64,000 bases of DNA, taken from positions 1 to 64,000 of IMG/VR virus record IMGVR_UViG_2784746744_000001, one strand, 5' to 3'. Below are positions 14,374-62,634 of the stretch, one piece after another. The notes beneath the pieces were generated by a model. It ran no database searches. It saw only the letters and a program-made list of their open reading frames with translations, and had not been told where the DNA came from. Position 1 is the stretch's first letter; every line of letters starts with the position of its first letter. A program made the position numbers and the translations under genes. Source of the DNA: a virus.

Positions 14374-14931
14374 ATGACCCCGGCGAACGATAACCGCCCT
14401 ACACCAAAAAGGCCGGCCGGCTTCGACGCCGCGCTCGAATCCTACCTGCCTTCGCTCCGGAAGCAGGCAAACTATATGGCCGGCACACGTGAGGACGGCG
14501 AAGTCCTCCTGCATGAGACCGTCCTGCGGATGCTCCGCTGCGCCGATAACTGCCGCGTGGAGACGTTCAAAACCTGGGCGCAGTACAAGCTGCTCAACAC
14601 CCACAGTGGCATGAGGGCGGCAGCCCGCAGCCAGTGCCGGTTCGCGCCGACGACGTCACTTACTCCTGCCAACGATAACGACCCGGACGAATTCGCTCGC
14701 ACGATCTCCCAGATGCGGACGGCTGCGACGCAGGAAGCGGATGCTGACTTTGCGGATGCGCTCCGGGTTCTCGGCACCATCAAGGACGGTGACTTGCTTC
14801 TCCGTCGCGCGATGGGTTTTGAGCTCAAGGTCATCGGCGACGAGCTCGGCGTGAGCAAGGAGCGCGTCCGCCAGCGTGAAGAGGCCGCAAGAACGGCGTT
14901 CTGCGCAGCGATGCAGCGGAGTGTCGCCTGA
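14374..14931 (+). CDS. ECF-type sigma-70 family sigma factor (regions 2 and 4). Two ANDN motifs
   Basis: Region 2-like LLHETVLRMLR. Region 4 HTH LKVIGDELGVSKERVRQ. Confidence 0.65.
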   Translation: MTPANDNRPTPKRPAGFDAALESYLPSLRKQANYMAGTREDGEVLLHETVLRMLRCADNCRVETFKTWAQYKLLNTHSGMRAAARSQCRFAPTTSLTPANDNDPDEFARTISQMRTAATQEADADFADALRVLGTIKDGDLLLRRAMGFELKVIGDELGVSKERVRQREEAARTAFCAAMQRSVA

Positions 14932-16735: not shown

Positions 16736-17401
16736 CTAACTCTTCGTTTTTATCCCTTTCTCAAGCTTGTGCTCCAGGCCTCGCATGATCGATGTGCTCA
16801 TGGCTGAAAAAGCTCCCACGGGAGAAAGCTCACGCTTTTTCAGATTCCGGTAAATCGCTTTGCGCGTAGCCATGGGTATCGTCTTGTCGGCTAGTTGTTG
16901 GAAAATGAGTAGTATTTTTTCAGCGTGCTCTGTCCTCATCTCTATTAAATCCGGTCTGTTAAGACCGATAATTTCGATCGTGGACAAGCCTGGAATGGAG
17001 CCGCAATGCCCCGCGACAGGCCCAGCAAAGACAATGTGGTCATCGGGGTCGGTGATGTAGGGATCAATTATTTGGGCGGCGGTAGGATCATCGTTCGATT
17101 TGTTTTGATTACATAATTCGCACGCCAGCGTCAGGTTGTCCCATTTGAAAGTCTTCTTAGGATCTAGTGACTTCGGATAGATATGCTCGACATCACCATG
17201 ATGCACATGTTTGAGTTTAGCTTCGCAATAGGCGCACTTGCCATTTGTCTCAAGGGTTAGGACGCGCTTTATGTCGACGTGTCGATATTTGCTCTTGAGA
17301 CCATCGTTTGCGTTCTTACCTGCAGCAAGGAGATCTGCCAGCCAGGCAGCGCCATTCGTTACAAGCACAGTTGGCTCGGTTAACTTAGAGAGCTTTATCA
17401 T
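16736..17401 (-). CDS. HNH endonuclease, PtuB-like (Septu-like defence partner)
   Basis: CAYCE...HHGDVEHIYP...N...CELCN HNH motif. 4-nt overlap with the upstream ATPase. AT-richer than the surrounding genes. Confidence 0.7.
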   Translation of the reverse strand: MIKLSKLTEPTVLVTNGAAWLADLLAAGKNANDGLKSKYRHVDIKRVLTLETNGKCAYCEAKLKHVHHGDVEHIYPKSLDPKKTFKWDNLTLACELCNQNKSNDDPTAAQIIDPYITDPDDHIVFAGPVAGHCGSIPGLSTIEIIGLNRPDLIEMRTEHAEKILLIFQQLADKTIPMATRKAIYRNLKKRELSPVGAFSAMSTSIMRGLEHKLEKGIKTKS

Positions 17402-18648
17402 CTGTTTGCAGCCATTCTCGCGAGCGTTTCTGCGAAGTAATCATCCAGCCCAAGCTGTGTCAGTTGCGAGCGCATTTGCTCAATATTGCCCTCAGTCAAG
17501 TTGTTGATATCGAACGCCTTTGATACCTTATAGAGCTCCTCTTCTGCCCAGATCGGCATCGTTACCGGCACTCCAAGTACCTCGCGCAAGACGTCGCCTG
17601 CAGAACCAGACTTCGAATCTTTGGTCAACGCTACGGAATAAACCGATCCGCCTGAGGGTAAAATGTTGTTCGCGCTCTTATATCTCAAGGCGTATATCGA
17701 CGAATCGCGAACAGACGAAACGACAAAAGGACTGTGGGTGGCGACGATGAATTGCCCACTTGGAAACGCTTGCAGCAGATTTCCCATAAGTGTGCGTTGC
17801 ATAGAAGGGTGTAGGTGATTTTCTGGCTCGTCGATTAAGCAAACAAAATTCGTTCTTTTCCGTGAATATAAGAAAACCTGCCAGGCCAAGTCCAATATGG
17901 AGTGAAGTCCGCCCGATGCACCGTCTATAGGGAAGTCACCTGTGTCAGTAACAATGACTACATCAGGAACTCTAATGCTAAGTGTCCTGAAACCTAGGCT
18001 CTGAGGAAGAAGCTTGCCCAGAACATCCTTGAACGCTTCGTAGTCGGCCTCGATCTGAACGTTACGAGGAATGTTGGGGTTTCCTACCCCAAATGTCGCC
18101 ATTGATATCAGCGCCTCTTTCATCCGAAAGGCCGGCGAGGAGGCCGTGTAACTATTCGCGATCTTGTGCTTTATCTCCTCATCGTAGAGCGTGTACGCCT
18201 GCTCTGCAGACATAGGATTGCTCCTTATGACATCCACGGCTTGGTATGTTGGGATAAACCTGTGAGACGCGATGTACAGGCCGTCCAGAACTTGCGACCC
18301 TCGAGTATGATGCAAGTTATATGCCCCAGAGTCAGTGCCCAGAGCGTGTAATCCTGATTTTGTGCCGTCTGAGAACGTCACCATCCCAATGCGGTTTTGC
18401 TCGTCCATAGCGCGCTGGCCTTGCCTTTTGTCGCGATCGTTCGCGACGTATCGCACGGTACCATCGTCGTCGATGTGCGGCGTCGCCACCAGCAATTGAT
18501 TGAAGCCAAACATCATGCCCAAGGTCTTCAGGATGGTGCTTTTACCCGAACCATTTGCGCCGGCGATTACGGTGAGGCGAGGATGGAAATCAATGTTGAT
18601 GGAGGCGTATTGCCGCCAATTCTCAATCTCAAGGTTATTAAAAATCAC
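17398..18648 (-). CDS. ABC/OLD-type AAA_15/21 ATPase, PtuA-like (Septu-like defence)
   Basis: N-terminal Walker A GANGSGKST. Walker B FVCLIDEPENHLHP. 416 aa. Operon with the HNH gene. Confidence 0.7.
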   Translation of the reverse strand: MIFNNLEIENWRQYASINIDFHPRLTVIAGANGSGKSTILKTLGMMFGFNQLLVATPHIDDDGTVRYVANDRDKRQGQRAMDEQNRIGMVTFSDGTKSGLHALGTDSGAYNLHHTRGSQVLDGLYIASHRFIPTYQAVDVIRSNPMSAEQAYTLYDEEIKHKIANSYTASSPAFRMKEALISMATFGVGNPNIPRNVQIEADYEAFKDVLGKLLPQSLGFRTLSIRVPDVVIVTDTGDFPIDGASGGLHSILDLAWQVFLYSRKRTNFVCLIDEPENHLHPSMQRTLMGNLLQAFPSGQFIVATHSPFVVSSVRDSSIYALRYKSANNILPSGGSVYSVALTKDSKSGSAGDVLREVLGVPVTMPIWAEEELYKVSKAFDINNLTEGNIEQMRSQLTQLGLDDYFAETLARMAANR

Positions 18649-24433: not shown

Positions 24434-24593
24434 TATCCAGATAGTTGAGCAGGTCGACCAGATCGTCGGCCTGCTCCATGTCCAGACCGTCTTGGAGAAC
24501 GCCTTTCACCTTCGCCGGTAGGCCAGTGAAGATGTCGAAGACCGTCCACGAACCATCATTCTCTTTGCGCATGTCATAGCGGTTCTTATGCAT
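24405..24593 (-). CDS. hypothetical small protein (62 aa) on the opposite strand
   Basis: Start MHKN preceded by GGAGG. Confidence 0.4.
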   Translation of the reverse strand: MHKNRYDMRKENDGSWTVFDIFTGLPAKVKGVLQDGLDMEQADDLVDLLNYLDIKRREETHR

Positions 24594-24614
24594 GCCGGTA
24601 CCTCCGGAGGGGTT

Positions 24615-26852
24615 ATGCCTGAACATAGCACATCGCTGCAGCCGCTTGAACTAGCGCAGCACTACACCAACGACTTCGGCTGGCCGGTTTTTCCGTGCCG
24701 GTCATCGTCTGTTGAGACGCACGATAGCACCACCGGCGAAATCATCACGCTTGGGGAAAAAACGCCTTTCACGACGAACGGCTTCAAGGGAGCAACGCAG
24801 TTTGCGCGTAACATCGCGAGATGGTGGGAAGACTGGCCGGATGCTGCGGTCGGCCTGCCGACTGGTACGAGAACAGGTTTCTTCGTTCTCGACATCGACA
24901 ACAAACCAGGCGGCGCCAATGGATTCGACTGGCTAGACGACATGGAAGCGGAGCACGGCCCGCTGCCAGACACCGCGCGCGTGACCAGCCCCAACGGCGG
25001 GCTGCACATCTATTTCAACTACGTCGCGGGCACTCGCAACCGCGGCGCTCTCGGTGCTGGCGTCGACATCCGGTCTGAGGGCGGCTACGTCCTCGCAGCT
25101 GGCAGCACAATGTCCAATGGTAGGCAGTACAGCTGGGTCGGAGACACGCGGGAGATTGCGGACGCGCCTGGCTGGCTGCTGGATCTGCTGTTGCCAAAGT
25201 CCGCCCCGACGCACAGCCATTATTCGGCATCGTCCTCAACGAATAACGCTTATGTTGATGCGGCGGTCGACCAAGAGCTTGCTGACCTTGCAAGCGCGCC
25301 AATGGGCAACCGTAACAACATGCTCAACGACACCGCTTTCGCGCTTGGCACGTTCGTCGGCGCGGGCGTCCTGTCCGAAGCGTCAGCAAGGGCGCAGCTG
25401 CAGGACGTCGCTCGCGGCTGGGGGAGGGACTGGACACGGTGCGTCAAAACGATCGAAAACGGTCTCAAGGCGGGCATCTTGCAGCCGCGTCATATTCCAG
25501 AGCCCCAGCAGGACAACACTCGGCTGGTCGACATGACCCGCATGATCCAGCGAGGGCTGGAGAAGGCGCGTGCCAAGGAGGCTGCCGTTGATGCGGACGC
25601 AGTGAGCGAGCCAGCAGCAGCAGCCGACAAGGAGCCCGAAGCCAAACCCCTTGAGCAAGAAAACACCGTGCCAACTGCCAGCAACGACAACCAGCCTCAG
25701 CAGCCTGTTGGCAGCATTGTCGCCACCGCCTTCAAGTGGATCGACCCATCCACGCTGCCCCGGCGCGAGTTTGCCTATGGCACGCACTTCATCCGGAAGT
25801 ACGTCTCGGTCACTGTCAGCCCGGGCGGCCTTGGCAAGACGTCAGCCAGCATCGCAGAATCATTGGCCATGGTCTCGGGCAGGGCATTGCTTGGCGTTAA
25901 GCCGCCACAGCGCCTGCGGACGTGGATATTCAACGCCGAAGATCCGCGCGACGAGTTGGAGCGGCGCATCATGGCGGCTTGCATCCATTACAATCTCAAG
26001 CCGGAAGACCTTGAGGGGCATCTGTTTCTCGACAGCGGCCGTGAGCAGGAGCTTGTCGTCGCCATCGAAGACAAGAAGGCCGGCGTTCGCATCCAGCAGC
26101 CGATCGTAGAAGCGGTGGTTGAGCAGATTGAGCGGTATGGCATCGATGTCATGATCGTGGACCCGTTCGTCTCGACCCACGGCGTCAACGAAAACGACAA
26201 CGGCGCCATCGACAAGGTCGCTAAACTCTGGGCGCAGATTGCCGATTACACGAACTGCAGCATCGACATCGTCCATCACCTGCGAAAGGTGGCGGACCGT
26301 GAGGCTACGGTCGAAGACGCACGAGGCGCTGTATCGCTGATCGGCGCGGCTCGCTCGGTGCGCGTGCTCAATCGGATGTCGGAAGAGCAGGCTGCAGAGG
26401 CTGGCGTGCCTTCTGCTGAGCGGTTCGGCTATTTCTACACGACCTATGGCAAGTCCAACCTGACGCCGCTGTCGCATCGTGCCGAGTGGCGGCACCTGGC
26501 GAGCGTGCCTTTGGGTAACGGGCGAGGGATGACCAAGCCGCAGGACTTTGCGCCGGTGGTGACGGAATGGAGGTGGCCCAGTGCAGAAGAGGTCGCTGGC
26601 GGCATCAGCGACGAGCAGCGGGCGGCGATCGTCACGGCCGTCGCCAACGCCGACTACAAGAAGTCGCCTAAGGCGAAGAACTGGGTAGGGGTAGCCGTGG
26701 CGTTCTCGCTTGGGTTGGACCTGGAGGACGAGCCCTCGAAGAAGCGTGTCAGCGGTCTTGTGCGCGCGCTCATCAAGGAAGGCGCTTTAGTCGAGAAGGA
26801 GGAGCGTGACCCGATCAGGCGGGAGACGGCAGTGTTTGTGCGGGCGGCTTAG
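24615..26852 (+). CDS. primase-helicase (bifunctional Prim-Pol N-terminal domain plus PriCT plus AAA_25/RepA-like P-loop domain). Linker has ASNDN
   Basis: Prim-Pol motifs (FVLDIDNK). PriCT-like NMLNDTAFALG. Walker A SPGGLGKTS. Confidence 0.8.
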   Translation: MPEHSTSLQPLELAQHYTNDFGWPVFPCRSSSVETHDSTTGEIITLGEKTPFTTNGFKGATQFARNIARWWEDWPDAAVGLPTGTRTGFFVLDIDNKPGGANGFDWLDDMEAEHGPLPDTARVTSPNGGLHIYFNYVAGTRNRGALGAGVDIRSEGGYVLAAGSTMSNGRQYSWVGDTREIADAPGWLLDLLLPKSAPTHSHYSASSSTNNAYVDAAVDQELADLASAPMGNRNNMLNDTAFALGTFVGAGVLSEASARAQLQDVARGWGRDWTRCVKTIENGLKAGILQPRHIPEPQQDNTRLVDMTRMIQRGLEKARAKEAAVDADAVSEPAAAADKEPEAKPLEQENTVPTASNDNQPQQPVGSIVATAFKWIDPSTLPRREFAYGTHFIRKYVSVTVSPGGLGKTSASIAESLAMVSGRALLGVKPPQRLRTWIFNAEDPRDELERRIMAACIHYNLKPEDLEGHLFLDSGREQELVVAIEDKKAGVRIQQPIVEAVVEQIERYGIDVMIVDPFVSTHGVNENDNGAIDKVAKLWAQIADYTNCSIDIVHHLRKVADREATVEDARGAVSLIGAARSVRVLNRMSEEQAAEAGVPSAERFGYFYTTYGKSNLTPLSHRAEWRHLASVPLGNGRGMTKPQDFAPVVTEWRWPSAEEVAGGISDEQRAAIVTAVANADYKKSPKAKNWVGVAVAFSLGLDLEDEPSKKRVSGLVRALIKEGALVEKEERDPIRRETAVFVRAA

Positions 26853-26918: not shown

Positions 26919-27077
26919 ATGAAGAAAACTTTGACCACTTTGCTCGCGATGACTTTCGTCGCAGCAGCCTTGGCGTCGTGCGGCAACACAATTCGCGGCA
27001 TGGGGCAGGACACTGCAAATACCGTTGACGCTACTCAGAGTGCTGGCAGGCGCGTCGACCGCGCAGCAAGCTACTAA
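26919..27077 (+). CDS. entericidin EcnA/B-family small lipoprotein
   Basis: Lipobox LASC, then GNTIRGMGQDTANTVD typical of entericidins. Terminator follows at 27104-27140. Confidence 0.6.
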   Translation: MKKTLTTLLAMTFVAAALASCGNTIRGMGQDTANTVDATQSAGRRVDRAASY

Positions 27078-27103
27078 GCCAGAAGCGAAACCATTTCTAT
27101 ACG

Positions 27104-27140
27104 AGGCCGGGCGAGCGATCGTGCCGGCCTTTTTTATGGC
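27104..27140 (+). terminator. rho-independent terminator
   Basis: GGCCGGGCGAGCGATCGTGCCGGCC followed by TTTTTT. Confidence 0.55.
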
Positions 27141-27181
27141 GTGTAGAACTGCTCCATACGCATGACCTGGCATTTTACCTC

Positions 27182-27331
27182 GGTCTCAACGCGGCGCTTT
27201 TCGACGACGACCTCGATGTCATCGCCGGCCAGCGTGACCAGCTCGAGGGCAAGATCCAAAGGCGTTACGGTTATGAAAAAGACCGGACCAAGAAAGACGT
27301 TGACGACTGGTATGGCCGACAGACTTGGTAA
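27182..27331 (+). pseudogene. CsbD-family general stress protein remnant (C-terminal half only, no start codon in frame)
   Basis: Frame-2 translation ...DDDLDVIAGQRDQLEGKIQRRYGYEKDRTKKDVDDW matches the CsbD C-terminal consensus. The N-terminal half is unrelated and no ATG/GTG/TTG is available. Confidence 0.4.
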
Positions 27332-27375
27332 AGATGAACCCCGCTTCGGCGGGATTTTTCTTTGCCATTTTGTGG

Positions 27376-27400
27376 GGAACCAATATCGCTCGACCTCGTT
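27376..27400 (+). promoter_or_regulatory. EcfG-type general-stress promoter GGAAC-N16-CGTT upstream of the PRC-barrel gene
   Basis: GGAAC at 27376-27380, 16-nt spacer, CGTT at 27397-27400. About 50 nt upstream of the start codon. Confidence 0.5.
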
Positions 27401-27451
27401 ATCTGGCCGACACGAAACGTCGTGATAACAGATGCATACGAGGAAATACTC

Positions 27452-27928
27452 ATGAAGAACATGATTGCCGCCGCCATGACCGTAGCGATGATGGGCACGG
27501 CTGCCTATGCGCAGCAGCCTGCTGCACCGGCAGCCCCCGCTGCTGAGCAGCCGGCCGCATCTGGTGCCGACGCAACTATGGTTGGTCCCGGCCTCACTAT
27601 GGGTAAGGCAGCAACCATGCCGCTCAAGTATGTTGAGATCAAGGACACGGATCTCGTGACCTCCAAGCTGGTCGGCATGAACATTTACAACAAGGAAAAT
27701 GAGGAAGTCGGTGAAATTTCCGACGTTGTGATCGGCAATGGCAAGTCGGTCATCGGCGTGATCGCGAGCGTTGGCGGTTTCCTCGGTCTCGGCAGCAGCT
27801 ACGTCGTTATCGATCCGGCGTCCATGGCTATCGCTGACGACAACGGCACCTGGAAAGCCTATGTTGACACGAACAAGGAGGCCCTGACCGCGGCGCCGAA
27901 GTTCGATTACGACAAGATGAAGAAGTAA
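27452..27928 (+). CDS. secreted PRC-barrel domain protein
   Basis: Signal peptide MKNMIAAAMTVAMMGTAAYA. PRC-barrel core (VGMNIYNKENEEVGEISDVVI). Confidence 0.65.
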   Translation: MKNMIAAAMTVAMMGTAAYAQQPAAPAAPAAEQPAASGADATMVGPGLTMGKAATMPLKYVEIKDTDLVTSKLVGMNIYNKENEEVGEISDVVIGNGKSVIGVIASVGGFLGLGSSYVVIDPASMAIADDNGTWKAYVDTNKEALTAAPKFDYDKMKK

Positions 27929-28070
27929 GATTCTTATGTGTCGCTTTTGTCCGCTACCACGGATGTACTGGAGCGGATAGAGGCGACATCGAGGGCCAAG
28001 CGCGGAAACGTCGCGGCCCTTTTGCCACATGATTTCGTTAGACGGCTCGAATGTCACTGGTGCGAAATGA

Positions 28071-28303
28071 CAAAATTCCACTTTCAGGTACGGAATTCAG
28101 ACGGATCGTTGGGAGAAGTCTTCGAAGCGGATTTTGAATCATCTGCGGAGGCGAGATCAGAAGCAGTGCGAGCCGCTCGGGAGATGGTGTCCGACGGGCT
28201 TTGGCACGGACAACCTCTCGCCAACGAGACATTCGAAATTGTCTCCGAAAACGGCGAGATAATCGAAGCCGTACCGTTTCAGTCAGTGGTCAATTTCGAC
28301 TGA
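28071..28303 (+). CDS. DUF6894-like small protein
   Basis: MTKFHFQVRNSDGS...D.E..E..SAEAR.EA...ARE matches the DUF6894 pattern. Start inferred at the internal Met. Confidence 0.45.
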
Positions 28304-28662
28304 TCGATTGCTGCGGCAAGCGCACTGGCCAGATGTTCGCGTGACGACGGCTTTCCCAACCATGGGAAGTCGGCGAAGAACGTGCCATGATAGTCGGGAT
28401 CGAAACTCGTTCCTGAGTGAATGACAGTTGGTACGCCTAAGCTTCGAAGCGCACCCGCAACTGGCTCACAGTTTCTGCCGCGCACGTGGAAGTCAATGAC
28501 AGCAGCGTCCGGCTTATCCCTACTCAGATAATCCAAGGCCTCACTAACGCTCGGAACGACCGCGACGCGAGCGAAACCTAAGTCTAAAAGCATAGCTTCT
28601 ACGTCGAGTGCGATCAGCATTTCGTCGTCGAGAACGAGCGCGGTCTTGTTTTGTTCTTTCAT
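28279..28662 (-). CDS. single-domain response-regulator receiver (CheY-like) protein
   Basis: DD...D phospho-acceptor pattern (VLDDEMLIALDVEAML...AAVIDFHV). Start MKEQNK preceded by AAAGAGGG. Confidence 0.7.
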   Translation of the reverse strand: MKEQNKTALVLDDEMLIALDVEAMLLDLGFARVAVVPSVSEALDYLSRDKPDAAVIDFHVRGRNCEPVAGALRSLGVPTVIHSGTSFDPDYHGTFFADFPWLGKPSSREHLASALAAAIDQSKLTTD

Positions 28663-29080
28663 GGCCCTCTTTAACACGCCCGATTCAAGCCGCTATATAA
28701 AATGTTAAATCTCGGCATGGTACGGGTTGAATCTCGCGCTCCCCGCGAACCAGCTCGCCATATGCTGAATCACAGCCATATCCCCCCAACACAACCCCTG
28801 ATACCGCCCAGTAGCACGTTTTCATAACCGTGCATTATCCGTGCACGAGTGGGCGGAAACACCTGCACAACGCTGCCCGGTTAGTGCACGTTTAGTAGGG
28901 TATATATTTATATATACCCCTACACGTGCAACCGTGCAGGGCGGTGTGCTGCGCGCACGGTGCCCCGTAGGGTATTTTTAGAAGAACTGGGCGGGCAGGG
29001 CGCACGTTTGAAAATACAACCTGCGCCTTGAATGGCTGCCTCGCTCTCCGGATAAATCCTCCATCAAGACAGGAGGCATC

Positions 29081-29539
29081 ATGGCAAAGGCGACACAGCA
29101 GACAGTTCGCATCAACGGTGCTCGCACGATCATCCGCACCTCTGCAACCGGCAAGATTACAACCAAACCAGCGCCGCCGAAGGAATGGGAGTTGCAGGCT
29201 GCTCAGGTTCGAGCTTTCCGCGCCATGCCGGCCTACGGCAAGCGGTTCCTGCTGGCTGGTGACCAGAACGCTGCCAAGCGCGGTCCGCGCGCCCAGCAGG
29301 AAGCAATCGCAGCCGGCATGACGCCAGGCGAAGCTGACCTCCGTATTTATCTAGCGGGCGGCCAGATCCGGATGATTGAGAACAAGGTTGGTAAAGGCCG
29401 GCTGTCTACCGCCCAGAGGGATCGGCATGCGGCGCTGGCCCGGCTTGGTCATGATGTGACCGTCGTCTCCGCGACCACACCAGCGGATGCGGCCAGCCAG
29501 GCGGTCGAGCTAGTACAAGGCTGGCTAGCTGTTGCCTGA
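29081..29539 (+). CDS. VRR-NUC domain nuclease
   Basis: GMTPGEADLRIYLAGGQIRMIENKVGKGRLSTAQ...LGHDVTVV matches the VRR-NUC core. Confidence 0.7.
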   Translation: MAKATQQTVRINGARTIIRTSATGKITTKPAPPKEWELQAAQVRAFRAMPAYGKRFLLAGDQNAAKRGPRAQQEAIAAGMTPGEADLRIYLAGGQIRMIENKVGKGRLSTAQRDRHAALARLGHDVTVVSATTPADAASQAVELVQGWLAVA

Positions 29540-29710
29540 TGCATCGCGCCACTCGGCGCGCTCAGCCTGCCGGTTGCGCCATTGCTCACGTTTGGCTTCA
29601 CGGTCTCGGCAGATTGAATGTTCGTCGTCGTTCCAGCCTTTGGCGAACCAGATGCCCAAGCCGGCAAGGATAACGACCACAAAGCCGCTCATAAGAAACG
29701 AAGCAACCAT
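29525..29710 (-). CDS. small membrane protein (61 aa)
   Basis: AGGAGGATGTT before the ATG. N-terminal TM helix. Confidence 0.45.
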   Translation of the reverse strand: MVASFLMSGFVVVILAGLGIWFAKGWNDDEHSICRDREAKREQWRNRQAERAEWRDASGNS

Positions 29711-29766
29711 AACATCCTCCTGAACAGGTCAGTCTATAACAACTGATCACAATCCAAGAGGTTCCG

Positions 29767-29952
29767 TCATGGGGTGTGGTGGATTGAGCCGGTCATCACC
29801 TGATCAACGCCGTCTAATCGGCTCATTGCGAGAGATGCTCCGAACATCAGGATGGCGATGATCGGTACGGCGAAGAGAACAATCGATCCAGGCACACGCA
29901 CGGCAAACTCCAAACAGATAGCGGCTACGAAGCCACAAATGCCCGCAGGCAT
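29767..29952 (-). CDS. small membrane protein (61 aa, two TM helices)
   Basis: ORF only, weak RBS. Confidence 0.3.
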   Translation of the reverse strand: MPAGICGFVAAICLEFAVRVPGSIVLFAVPIIAILMFGASLAMSRLDGVDQVMTGSIHHTP

Positions 29953-31550: not shown

Positions 31551-31627
31551 CGCAGAGTAGAGCAGCCAGGTAGCTTGTCAGGTTCATACCCTGAAGGTCG
31601 CGGGTTCAAATCCCGCCTCTGCAACCA
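31551..31627 (+). tRNA. tRNA-Met (CAT), initiator-like (C1-A72 mismatch)
   Basis: Cloverleaf folded by hand. Anticodon loop TTCATAC. T-arm GCGGGTTCAAATCCCGC. 3-prime CCA. High similarity to bacterial tRNA-fMet. Confidence 0.75.
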
Positions 31628-31635
31628 ACTCCCAT

Positions 31636-31711
31636 GCGCGTCTGGCCGAGTGGTTCAGGCAACGGTCTCCAAAACCGTCTAGGTCGGTTCGATTCCGGCG
31701 GCGCTGCGCCA
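31636..31711 (+). tRNA. tRNA-like sequence, possibly tRNA-Trp (CCA anticodon), with imperfect acceptor stem (possible pseudo-tRNA or att remnant)
   Basis: D-arm GCCGAGTGGTTCAGGC. Anticodon arm ACGGT-CTCCAAA-ACCGT. T-arm GTCGGTTCGATTCCGGC. Acceptor pairing only 5 of 7 and no clean CCA register. Confidence 0.35.
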
Positions 31712-62237: not shown

Positions 62238-62609
62238 TTAAACGCACAAAGCCCCGCGCATGTCGGTACGCGGGGCAATGGCGCGGCCAGCTGACGCATC
62301 GTCAAGATCAACCGGCGCGATTTCAAAACCGTGATCACCGAAATACGTTCCGAGATTATTTAACTTTTGCTTCAGGCGATTCACCGTCTCTAAGATTTGC
62401 CTGAGTTCCTCGTCTGTGCCCATGCCGAGTGCCAAATTTTCTGCGACCTCGACAACAGCTGCCAGGGTTTCGGCCTCTGTCCAGCCGGCTTTCATCGCGT
62501 CGGCAATAAGCTCCTGCAACTGCCCTTCGATCGCCTCCTCACATTCGATGAAGCGGTCGGAAGAATTCGCGCGGGGTTTATCCATGCCGCCCAACGAACT
62601 CAACCGCAA
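62238..62609 (-). CDS. hypothetical acidic protein
   Basis: 123-aa ORF. Divergent from the protease gene across the operator. Confidence 0.4.
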   Translation of the reverse strand: MRLSSLGGMDKPRANSSDRFIECEEAIEGQLQELIADAMKAGWTEAETLAAVVEVAENLALGMGTDEELRQILETVNRLKQKLNNLGTYFGDHGFEIAPVDLDDASAGRAIAPRTDMRGALCV

Positions 62610-62634
62610 GCAGTTCCCCTCAGTATCACAAATC

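Follow-up and report, generated by a model that had tools for sequence, protein, structure and literature searches.

How do genes typical of the alphaproteobacterial general stress response (GSR) come to lie between the primase and the late region of a prophage, and would the stress sigma factor of the host read them? The question is raised by positions 26919-28662 of the IMG/VR virus record IMGVR_UViG_2784746744_000001, of which positions 1 to 64,000 were analyzed (hereafter the window). Five items and a motif had been described there in an initial annotation: an entericidin-like lipoprotein, a CsbD remnant, a secreted PRC-barrel protein preceded by GGAAC-N16-CGTT, a DUF6894 protein and a stand-alone receiver domain. 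All of them were found at the places assigned to them. The evidence below makes it probable that the segment from 26853 to about 28790 is moron cargo that occupies the main hot spot for accessory genes in a ~60-kb temperate phage of the Rhizobiaceae in Neorhizobium sp. JUb45, and that it is wired to the stress response of the host through an EcfG-type promoter; this judgment applies to location and wiring taken together.

The cluster occupies an accessory-gene hot spot of a prophage

The prophage makes up most of the window, beginning with a CI-like repressor gene at about 3.7 kb and reaching ~59 kb or beyond. The early region, to the left of the cluster, encodes the CI-like repressor, an SPFH protein, DnaN, a sigma factor of the extracytoplasmic function (ECF) type, a helicase, two DNA methylases and the primase; the late region, to the right, contains an endonuclease-like gene, terS, terL and the portal, protease-capsid, tape measure and tail genes. 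The cargo is bordered by two features:

24588-26852, plus strand: primase-polymerase/helicase gene (Pfam Prim-Pol, 4.5e-39; AAA_25, 1.5e-30), left border of the hot spot.
28791-28961, no strand assigned: non-coding backbone element, right border of the cargo, with GTGCAC-type repeats around the AT-rich palindrome GTAGGGTATATATTTATATATACCCCTAC.

Sixty loci that encode a relative of the primase were retrieved, and about 40 related prophages were compared for breaks of homology (loci are cited by their L numbers). Between the window and its closer relatives, homology breaks at the primase stop codon (26852) and restarts at 28791 or 28825, within the conserved non-coding element. Among 36 non-redundant relatives, between 226 bp and 8.5 kb separate the primase from the next backbone gene, the homologue of o29081, and in six (L007, L028, L034, L037, L043 and L049) the two genes are only 226-292 bp apart. 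Because primase and next backbone gene are nearly adjacent in several relatives, the backbone is continuous across the site. Cargo in the hot spot of the relatives falls into a defence-type class (AbiJ-like, SMODS/AGS-C, Schlafen-AlbA_2, protein kinase, AAA_21 and DUF3644 genes) and a class of small stress-type genes. The genes were counted by their ribosome-binding sites; a census based on G+C content at third codon positions missed known genes, the cargo being compositionally atypical.

The initial annotation had placed the cluster inside the prophage, and had named as the case against this that it could be syntenic host DNA flanked by two separate elements. Such an origin would fit the host-type genes, the occurrence of the PRC-DUF6894-receiver triad in contigs dominated by host genes, and the G+C content of the cargo (0.558 and 0.539 over 27-29 kb), which is below that of the flanking early genes (0.61-0.645 over 22-27 kb). 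It is contradicted by the short primase intervals of the six relatives, by the shared order of phage modules from the CI-like repressor to the tail genes, and by the "host" copies themselves, which carry scraps of primase, backbone element and o29081 gene. With phage genes on both sides and a continuous backbone, we exclude this explanation with near certainty.

The element at the right border is 87-93% identical to its closest relatives versus about 71-75% for the flanking coding sequence. According to the alignment its palindrome is exchanged in L027, L024 and L048 for different sequences that are still palindromic, a compensatory pattern. It could be an origin-like or a regulatory site.

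The PRC-barrel gene lies behind a conserved EcfG-type motif

The wiring of the cargo to the stress response is read from the surroundings of the PRC-barrel gene:

27340-27363, plus strand: intrinsic terminator upstream of the PRC promoter (terminator scan; fold of -11.7 kcal/mol).
27376-27400, plus strand: predicted EcfG-type promoter GGAAC-N16-CGTT, GGAACCAATATCGCTCGACCTCGTT, an exact match that ends 51 nt before the PRC ATG (27452).
27411-27424, plus strand: inverted repeat CACGAAACGTCGTG (predicted hairpin) in the predicted 5' untranslated region (UTR) of the PRC gene.
27452-27928, plus strand: gene of a secreted PRC-barrel protein of 158 aa (Pfam PRC, E=1.1e-10, 41.9 bits versus 21.2).

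The motif that had been reported ahead of this gene was tested against the EcfG consensus of PMC7083833 and PMC6599016. It agrees in its boxes (GGAAC and CGTT), in its spacing (16-17 nt) and in its distance from the coding sequence (less than about 100 nt). The boxes are present in all eight distinct copies of the PRC locus (window, L063, L072, L075, L074, L068, L002 and L001): GGAAC and CGTT are invariant, save for AGTT in L001, and their distance to the start codon is constant, although the 16-nt spacers differ at most of their positions. The inverted repeat, kept as CACGRAA...CGTG in L001, L002, L068, L074 and L075, could be an operator or an RNA hairpin. The hairpin at 27340-27363 is conserved in L001, L063 and L072.

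The gene product has an N-terminal signal peptide, read by eye as MKNMIAAAMTVAMMGTAAYA with the cut before QQ. Since terminator, promoter, 5' UTR, gene and a further terminator (27991-28021) follow one another in order, the PRC gene has the anatomy of an autonomous unit; a predicted promoter and predicted terminators of its own give it the layout expected of a moron.

Genes of this kind belong to the EcfG regulon elsewhere. The PRC-barrel gene SMb20522 of Sinorhizobium meliloti is a target of RpoE2, with a promoter mapped by rapid amplification of 5' cDNA ends (5'-RACE; PMC6180224), the PRC-barrel gene #1478 is regulated by EcfG in Sphingomonas melonis (PMC6599016), and the direct targets of the GSR in Sphingopyxis granuli include csbD and ecnAB (PMC7083833). 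The description of the cluster as composed of GSR-type genes is thus borne out by EcfG/RpoE2 targets of other Alphaproteobacteria and, for the receiver, by its closeness to SdrG and Sma0114 (see below).

The motif is concentrated in the hot spot throughout the phage family

A search of the window for further GGAAC-N16-17-CGTT sites, which the initial annotation had proposed, gave one more site with the 16-nt spacing and none with 17 nt. That site (62593-62617, minus strand) overlaps the annotated start of the open reading frame (ORF) at 62238-62609 (minus strand), the first ATG of which lies about 7 nt past the -10 box; it would give a leaderless transcript or be a chance match. A relaxed site occurs at 62351 (minus strand). 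Another, at 28856, was rejected: it lies in the backbone element, and its GGAAC is not conserved in relatives.

In the related phages, the strict motif GGAAC-N16/17-CGTT was found 13 times in 98.7 kb of hot-spot intervals versus 4 times in 714 kb of backbone. For the relaxed form, GGAAC-N16-VGTT, the counts were 27 in 90.4 kb versus 7 in 644 kb, a difference of about 27-fold; both comparisons include homologous sites inherited among related phages, with independent origins estimated at about half a dozen. The relaxed hot-spot sites are co-directional with the phage genes in 24 of the 27 cases, and shuffled hot-spot DNA contained 2.0 of them on average and 8 at most. In 10 relatives a strict site stands 32 nt upstream of an intact csbD gene of 67 aa that has a strong ribosome-binding site; the genes behind the strict sites of L004 encode a DUF4142 protein and a secreted Arg-rich protein. 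Pfam returned nothing for the small membrane proteins, for proteins of 62 aa and 55 aa that by our own reading resemble DUF3606, or for a 59-aa Lys/Asp-rich protein.

The motif also precedes a gene that lies outside the cluster:

29525-29765, minus strand: second candidate stress moron, with GGAAC-N16-AGTT (29765-29741) preceding a gene for a 61-aa membrane protein (29710-29525) by 30 nt.

Both boxes are kept in L077 and L080, where the spacers differ, and the 61-aa gene has a strong ribosome-binding site. It is the second of two small membrane-protein genes at 29525-29952 (minus strand), which occupy a gap that in many relatives measures only about 60 nt; both genes are kept in relics of the prophage.

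Several observations weigh against stress control of the cluster. The two strict N16 sites of the window compare with 0.54 expected and 9 of 100 shuffles reach that number, so the count is not significant alone. Among the four intact genes only the PRC gene carries the EcfG-type motif; upstream of the entericidin gene (ecn), the DUF6894 gene and the receiver gene no convincing promoter of either EcfG type or sigma-70 type was found, and the csbD piece is dead. The cargo as a whole had been described as GSR-controlled, and this description would, by the sites found, apply to the PRC gene only. The receiver scores 23.1 bits with Pfam Response_reg, below the gathering score of 30.2. Its residues at the FAT GUY motif, which is located on strand beta-4, are I-H-S-G-T-S, with only the Ser/Thr and Gly positions kept. 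The phage, furthermore, encodes an ECF-type sigma factor of its own (14374-14931, plus strand), with 44.8 bits to TIGR02937 versus a cut-off of 42.9 and a faint PhyR sigma-like match.

Homologues of this sigma factor are backbone genes in 28 related loci, and ECF sigma factors generally use -35 boxes containing AAC. The cargo promoters might accordingly be read by the phage protein, in which case the PRC gene and, in the relatives, csbD and a small RNA module would be expressed in lytic development instead of in the stressed lysogen. The seven relaxed backbone sites, however, share no conserved position; the motif is nearly absent from the backbone and is therefore not the promoter type of the phage itself. 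The boxes are kept in relics that have no sigma homologue within the retrieved 10-kb flanks, and a promoter of this type also precedes the plasmid PRC genes of L001 and L002, which stand in non-phage surroundings. Across the relatives the phage sigma falls to 28-45% identity, whereas the promoter boxes are identical. The genes behind the motif belong, moreover, to canonical EcfG-regulon families (PMC6180224, PMC7083833). We regard control by the phage sigma factor as unlikely.

The window count alone being non-significant, the reality of the motif rests on position and conservation. We consider 27376-27400 a genuine EcfG-type promoter, at which EcfG would probably act, because the motif is enriched in the hot spot and because csbD, ecnAB and PRC-barrel genes are established EcfG/RpoE2 targets elsewhere. 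A full-text literature search, incomplete in its coverage, returned no publication linking prophages with EcfG, and we did not find described elsewhere the recurrence of EcfG-type wiring, RNA module included, across a whole phage family.

An alpha-r35b-like RNA module follows the PRC gene

A feature that the initial annotation had missed lies directly 3' of the PRC stop codon:

27923-28023, plus strand: alpha-r35b-like RNA module, with a long perfect hairpin at 27938-27989 (invariant apex CCACGGAUGUACUGG) and a terminator hairpin at 27991-28021.

The match to Rfam RF02346 scores 30.4 bits, below the gathering score of 45, and the 5' hairpin of the family is absent. The module folds with -52.6 kcal/mol (z of -7.0). 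In an alignment of 26 sequences the apex CCACGGAUG(U/C)ACUGG is identical throughout save for the one U/C difference, and the stem below it shows compensatory changes.

The sub-module alpha-r35b is known from the work of del Val et al. (PMC3346310). The apex hairpin and the terminator hairpin found here are the counterparts of hairpins 2 and 3 in the alphaproteobacterial sRNA alpha-r35 (Smr35B, RF02346); the module of the window differs in adjoining a coding sequence, as its 3' UTR or terminator, and in lacking the 5' hairpin. At the Smr35B locus on pSymB of S. meliloti neither an adjacent PRC gene nor an upstream EcfG motif was found, whereas the modules of related phages usually have an EcfG-type site of their own. 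Of 18 distinct relatives with the module, 15 (L003, L006, L015, L016, L019, L020, L022-L024, L026, L031, L035, L040, L045 and L048) have GGAAC-N16-[CA][GA]TT ahead of it, either at -51 or at about -69 relative to its core. In the latter case the EcfG-type site begins right after the csbD stop codon. The sequences suggest that the module of the relatives may be an EcfG-driven small RNA doubling as the 3' UTR of csbD.

Relics of the prophage retain the cargo

A DNA search with the cluster gave no match in the phage collection. Several chromosomal-looking contigs, however, contain the PRC-DUF6894-receiver triad, its last two genes being convergent and overlapping by 25 nt. Each close copy with readable surroundings (L063, L072, L075-77 and L079-80) carries scraps of the phage backbone, with differing deletion end points:

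L072: last 165 codons of the primase, at 86% identity, with ecn, an inserted IS66 and part of the backbone element.
L063: last 45 nt of the primase, and the counterpart of window positions 28930-29002.
L075-77 (Rhizobium panacihumi): 3' portion of the endonuclease-like gene, both small minus-strand genes found at 29.5-29.95 kb, and counterparts of genes from window 60-62 kb.
L079-80 (Neorhizobium huautlense): the endonuclease-like gene at full length.

These loci, which come from Rhizobiaceae genomes and metagenomes and from which almost all phage genes are gone, are, to judge from the scraps, prophage relics: the phage was lost and the cargo kept. The ratio of nonsynonymous to synonymous substitution rates (dN/dS), calculated between the window and the relic copies, was 0.09-0.10 for ecn, 0.02-0.05 for the PRC gene (the protein is 94-96% identical in amino acids), 0.03-0.12 for DUF6894 and 0.05-0.10 for the receiver. 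With values of 0.02-0.12, all four intact genes are therefore under purifying selection.

These results bear on whether the segment could be decaying hitch-hiker DNA with no function, in which the motif arose by chance. Two dead gene fragments are indeed present in it, the motif count of the window would be compatible with chance, and in L063 the start codon and the lipobox cysteine of ecn are mutated. Decay is opposed by the low dN/dS of all four intact genes, by promoter boxes conserved in eight copies despite diverged spacers, and by the survival of the cargo beyond the phage in several independent relics; we consider it very improbable.

A DUF6894 protein 88% identical to that of the window bears an NCBI name from JUb45, so this strain may itself hold a second, relic copy. 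The plasmid PRC genes of L001 and L002 carry no phage scraps and may represent a host-native lineage. L001, a Neorhizobium plasmid with csbD, PRC gene, small gene, CheY and kinase, was considered as the source locus and rejected, only csbD and PRC gene being homologous and CheY and small gene not.

Two contigs have further stress-type genes beside the cargo copy. In L063 (12873-16426) and L064 (4906-7056) the cargo copy adjoins genes for DUF892, DUF2934, Mn catalase and DUF883, and in both loci second DUF6894 paralogues lie beside Crp-type regulators near the cargo copy. An ECF sigma gene with PhyR_sigma2 and Sigma70 matches is located near the relic copy in L063, and the terminal 186 bp of that contig have a 74% match to the DUF4142 gene carried as cargo by phage L004.

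The DUF6894 and receiver genes form a conserved convergent pair

The right half of the cluster is made up of two genes and a conserved box:

28067-28303, plus strand: gene of a DUF6894 protein of 78 aa (Pfam DUF6894, E=1.1e-10, 41.9 bits versus 24.1).
28279-28662, minus strand: gene of a stand-alone receiver of 127 aa, SdrG/Sma0114-like by phmmer against solved structures.
28692-28709, minus strand: 18-nt box TTTAACATTTTATATAGC upstream of the receiver gene, conserved in the upstream alignment of window, L062, L063 and L064.

The two genes are convergent and their 3' ends overlap by 25 nt, an arrangement that is strictly conserved. The DNA in common with copies of the L063/L072 type has its right end at the box: homology with L063 ends at 28709, and L075-77 are homologous up to 28810.

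That the minus-strand gene encodes a stand-alone receiver was confirmed by phmmer, with E of about 1e-10 to the single-domain regulators 2MSW, 5IEB (SdrG) and 2LPM (Sma0114); in the alignment to SdrG and Sma0114 the active-site residues D12, D13, D57, S83 and K104 are all present. A protein named from Neorhizobium sp. JUb45 matches the receiver at 100% identity; the best matches of the receiver on plasmids, at most 39.7% identical, are uninformative. SdrG of S. melonis and Sma0114 of S. meliloti, which belong to the FAT GUY subfamily of single-domain response regulators, are likewise stand-alone and share with it the acidic pocket, the phospho-acceptor Asp, the Ser/Thr and the Lys. The receiver described here differs from both in being phage-borne, in being paired with DUF6894 and in having no adjacent kinase. 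Its kinship to SdrG and Sma0114, together with the known Pak-SdrG-PhyT-PhyR relay (PMC5898713), makes phosphorylation by HWE/HisKA_2 kinases plausible.

For DUF6894, AlphaFold2 predicts a beta-beta-alpha-beta-beta fold with a predicted local distance difference test score (pLDDT) of 92.6. The family has 95 representatives at E<=1e-3; tblastn against plasmids gave no match, and no paper on it was found in the full-text literature search. PADLOC gave no defence-system match for PRC protein, DUF6894 or receiver. Up to 12 DUF6894-like repeats were seen in very large proteins of 1154-4294 aa (P0026, P0037, P0055 and P0105).

The receiver, perhaps together with DUF6894, might serve the phage instead of the host: as a phosphate sink or decoy for HWE/HisKA_2 kinases it would sense the stress response or weaken it, with the effect of biasing the choice between lysis and lysogeny or of protecting phage replication. 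Its likeness to SdrG and Sma0114, with an intact phospho-acceptor, and the strict conservation of the convergent, overlapping pair would agree with such a role. Fold similarity is modest, however, and the fold a simple one; the pair is, moreover, under purifying selection in relics that have no phage, which argues for a benefit to the host. Such a role in the service of the phage appears unlikely to us.

The left part of the cargo contains an entericidin gene and a csbD chimera

Upstream of the PRC unit the following features were identified:

26919-27077, plus strand: ecn, gene of an entericidin-domain lipoprotein of 52 aa, with the lipobox LASC read from the sequence.
27103-27137, plus strand: intrinsic terminator after ecn, with a hairpin at 27103-27131 followed by a U run (-19.8 kcal/mol, z of -2.55).
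27157-27202, plus strand: fragment of a 35-aa membrane-protein gene, recognized by alignment with L063, where the gene is intact.
27203-27331, plus strand: 3' half of csbD, a dead remnant fused in frame to the membrane-protein fragment (stop codon 27329-27331).

The Ecn protein matches the NCBIfam entericidin model NF052367 (E=1.2e-18, 67 bits versus a cut-off of 40) and, weakly, Pfam PF08085 (E=0.074, 13.5 bits versus a threshold of 23.3). The terminator is conserved in L063. The fragment at 27157-27202, which matches L072 at 89%, is the middle of the 35-aa gene; promoter, ribosome-binding site and start codon are deleted in the window. The intact gene of L063 sits behind GGAAC-N16-GGTT and a ribosome-binding site.

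A CsbD remnant had been described here. A piece of csbD is present and dead, but it is not a plain remnant, being part of a chimera without start codon that joins the membrane-protein fragment to the 3' half of csbD. It scores 30.1 bits with Pfam CsbD (gathering score 40) and covers profile positions 21-53 only; it has no start codon, and no ORF of 30 aa or more was found in its frame. Its nucleotide identity to the intact csbD of related prophages is 78-82%. Its source could be the csbD of a phage relative or an ancestral pair of csbD and PRC gene like that of L001 and L068.

Other accessory features of the prophage

Outside the hot spot, two further features were noted:

16736-18648, minus strand: complete Septu anti-phage system (PADLOC PtuA, 2.6e-151; PtuB, 1e-68).
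31551-31707, plus strand: tRNA-Met (CAT) and tRNA-Trp (CCA) genes, a short distance upstream of the packaging module.

The Septu system, on the opposite strand within the early region, lies in the stretch where the G+C content of the window is lowest (0.49-0.51), and appears to be a second accessory insertion in the prophage.

Relation to known systems

Members of the EcfG/RpoE2 regulon belong to the same protein families as the cargo and share the promoter architecture, with GGAAC-N16-CGTT no more than 100 nt from the coding sequence; the genes described here differ in being phage-borne. The PRC-barrel genes matched on S. meliloti megaplasmids encode proteins only about 41% identical to that of the window over part of the protein, so the similarity is one of family and not of orthology.

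The phage moron concept reportedly goes back to Juhala, Hendrix and colleagues and their lambdoid phages. The segment resembles lambdoid morons in that it is DNA placed between genes that are adjacent in relatives, with a promoter and terminators of its own, a deviant base composition and host-type genes. It differs from them in its promoter, which is of the EcfG (ECF15) type and not of the sigma-70 type, and in its cargo, which consists of stress families, an RNA and a response regulator and not of virulence or exclusion genes. Taken together, these comparisons mark it as a moron cluster of known families, apparently distinguished by EcfG-type wiring, recurrence throughout the phage family, an SdrG-like regulator and survival in relics. 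As far as sequence can tell, it would be a good but not unprecedented case of a phage wiring cargo into the stress control of its host.

A model for expression of the cargo in the lysogen

The host is expected to have the EcfG-NepR-PhyR system, given the conservation of this system in Rhizobiaceae (PMC6180224, PMC3892343). In a lysogen under stress, phosphorylated PhyR would sequester NepR and thereby free the ECF15 sigma factor of the host (EcfG/RpoE2). RNA polymerase with EcfG would then start transcription an estimated few bases downstream of 27400 and produce a PRC-barrel mRNA ending in the RNA module. The PRC-barrel protein would be exported, and the prophage would in this way add extra products of the general stress regulon to the stress output of the host. 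The receiver would probably be phosphorylated by HWE/HisKA_2 kinases of the host and could be a shuttle or a sink in the relay to PhyR. Lysogenic conversion by the cluster and an input of the receiver into PhyR/NepR-type signalling, both suggested in the initial annotation, are likewise putative.

A bolder proposal is that the phage family systematically uses the host stress sigma factor for a cargo set that rewires or reads PhyR-NepR-EcfG, which would boost stress tolerance or couple phage decisions to stress, and which hosts would then keep. We hold this to be a speculative extension, with rather low odds of being right.

If the promoters depend on EcfG, rhizobial temperate phages would carry general stress regulon genes from strain to strain and place them under a switch, the sigma factor, that the new host already has; they would possibly also move a regulator of that regulon and a small-RNA module. 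The loci where the phage is deleted and the cargo remains under purifying selection are natural evidence of a benefit to the host. The PRC-barrel stress proteins, DUF6894 and the alpha-r35b module, repeatedly tied to EcfG-type promoters, thereby gain testable handles. If the reading is true, prophage content would contribute to differences between strains in desiccation, osmotic, stationary-phase and rhizosphere survival in agriculturally relevant bacteria.

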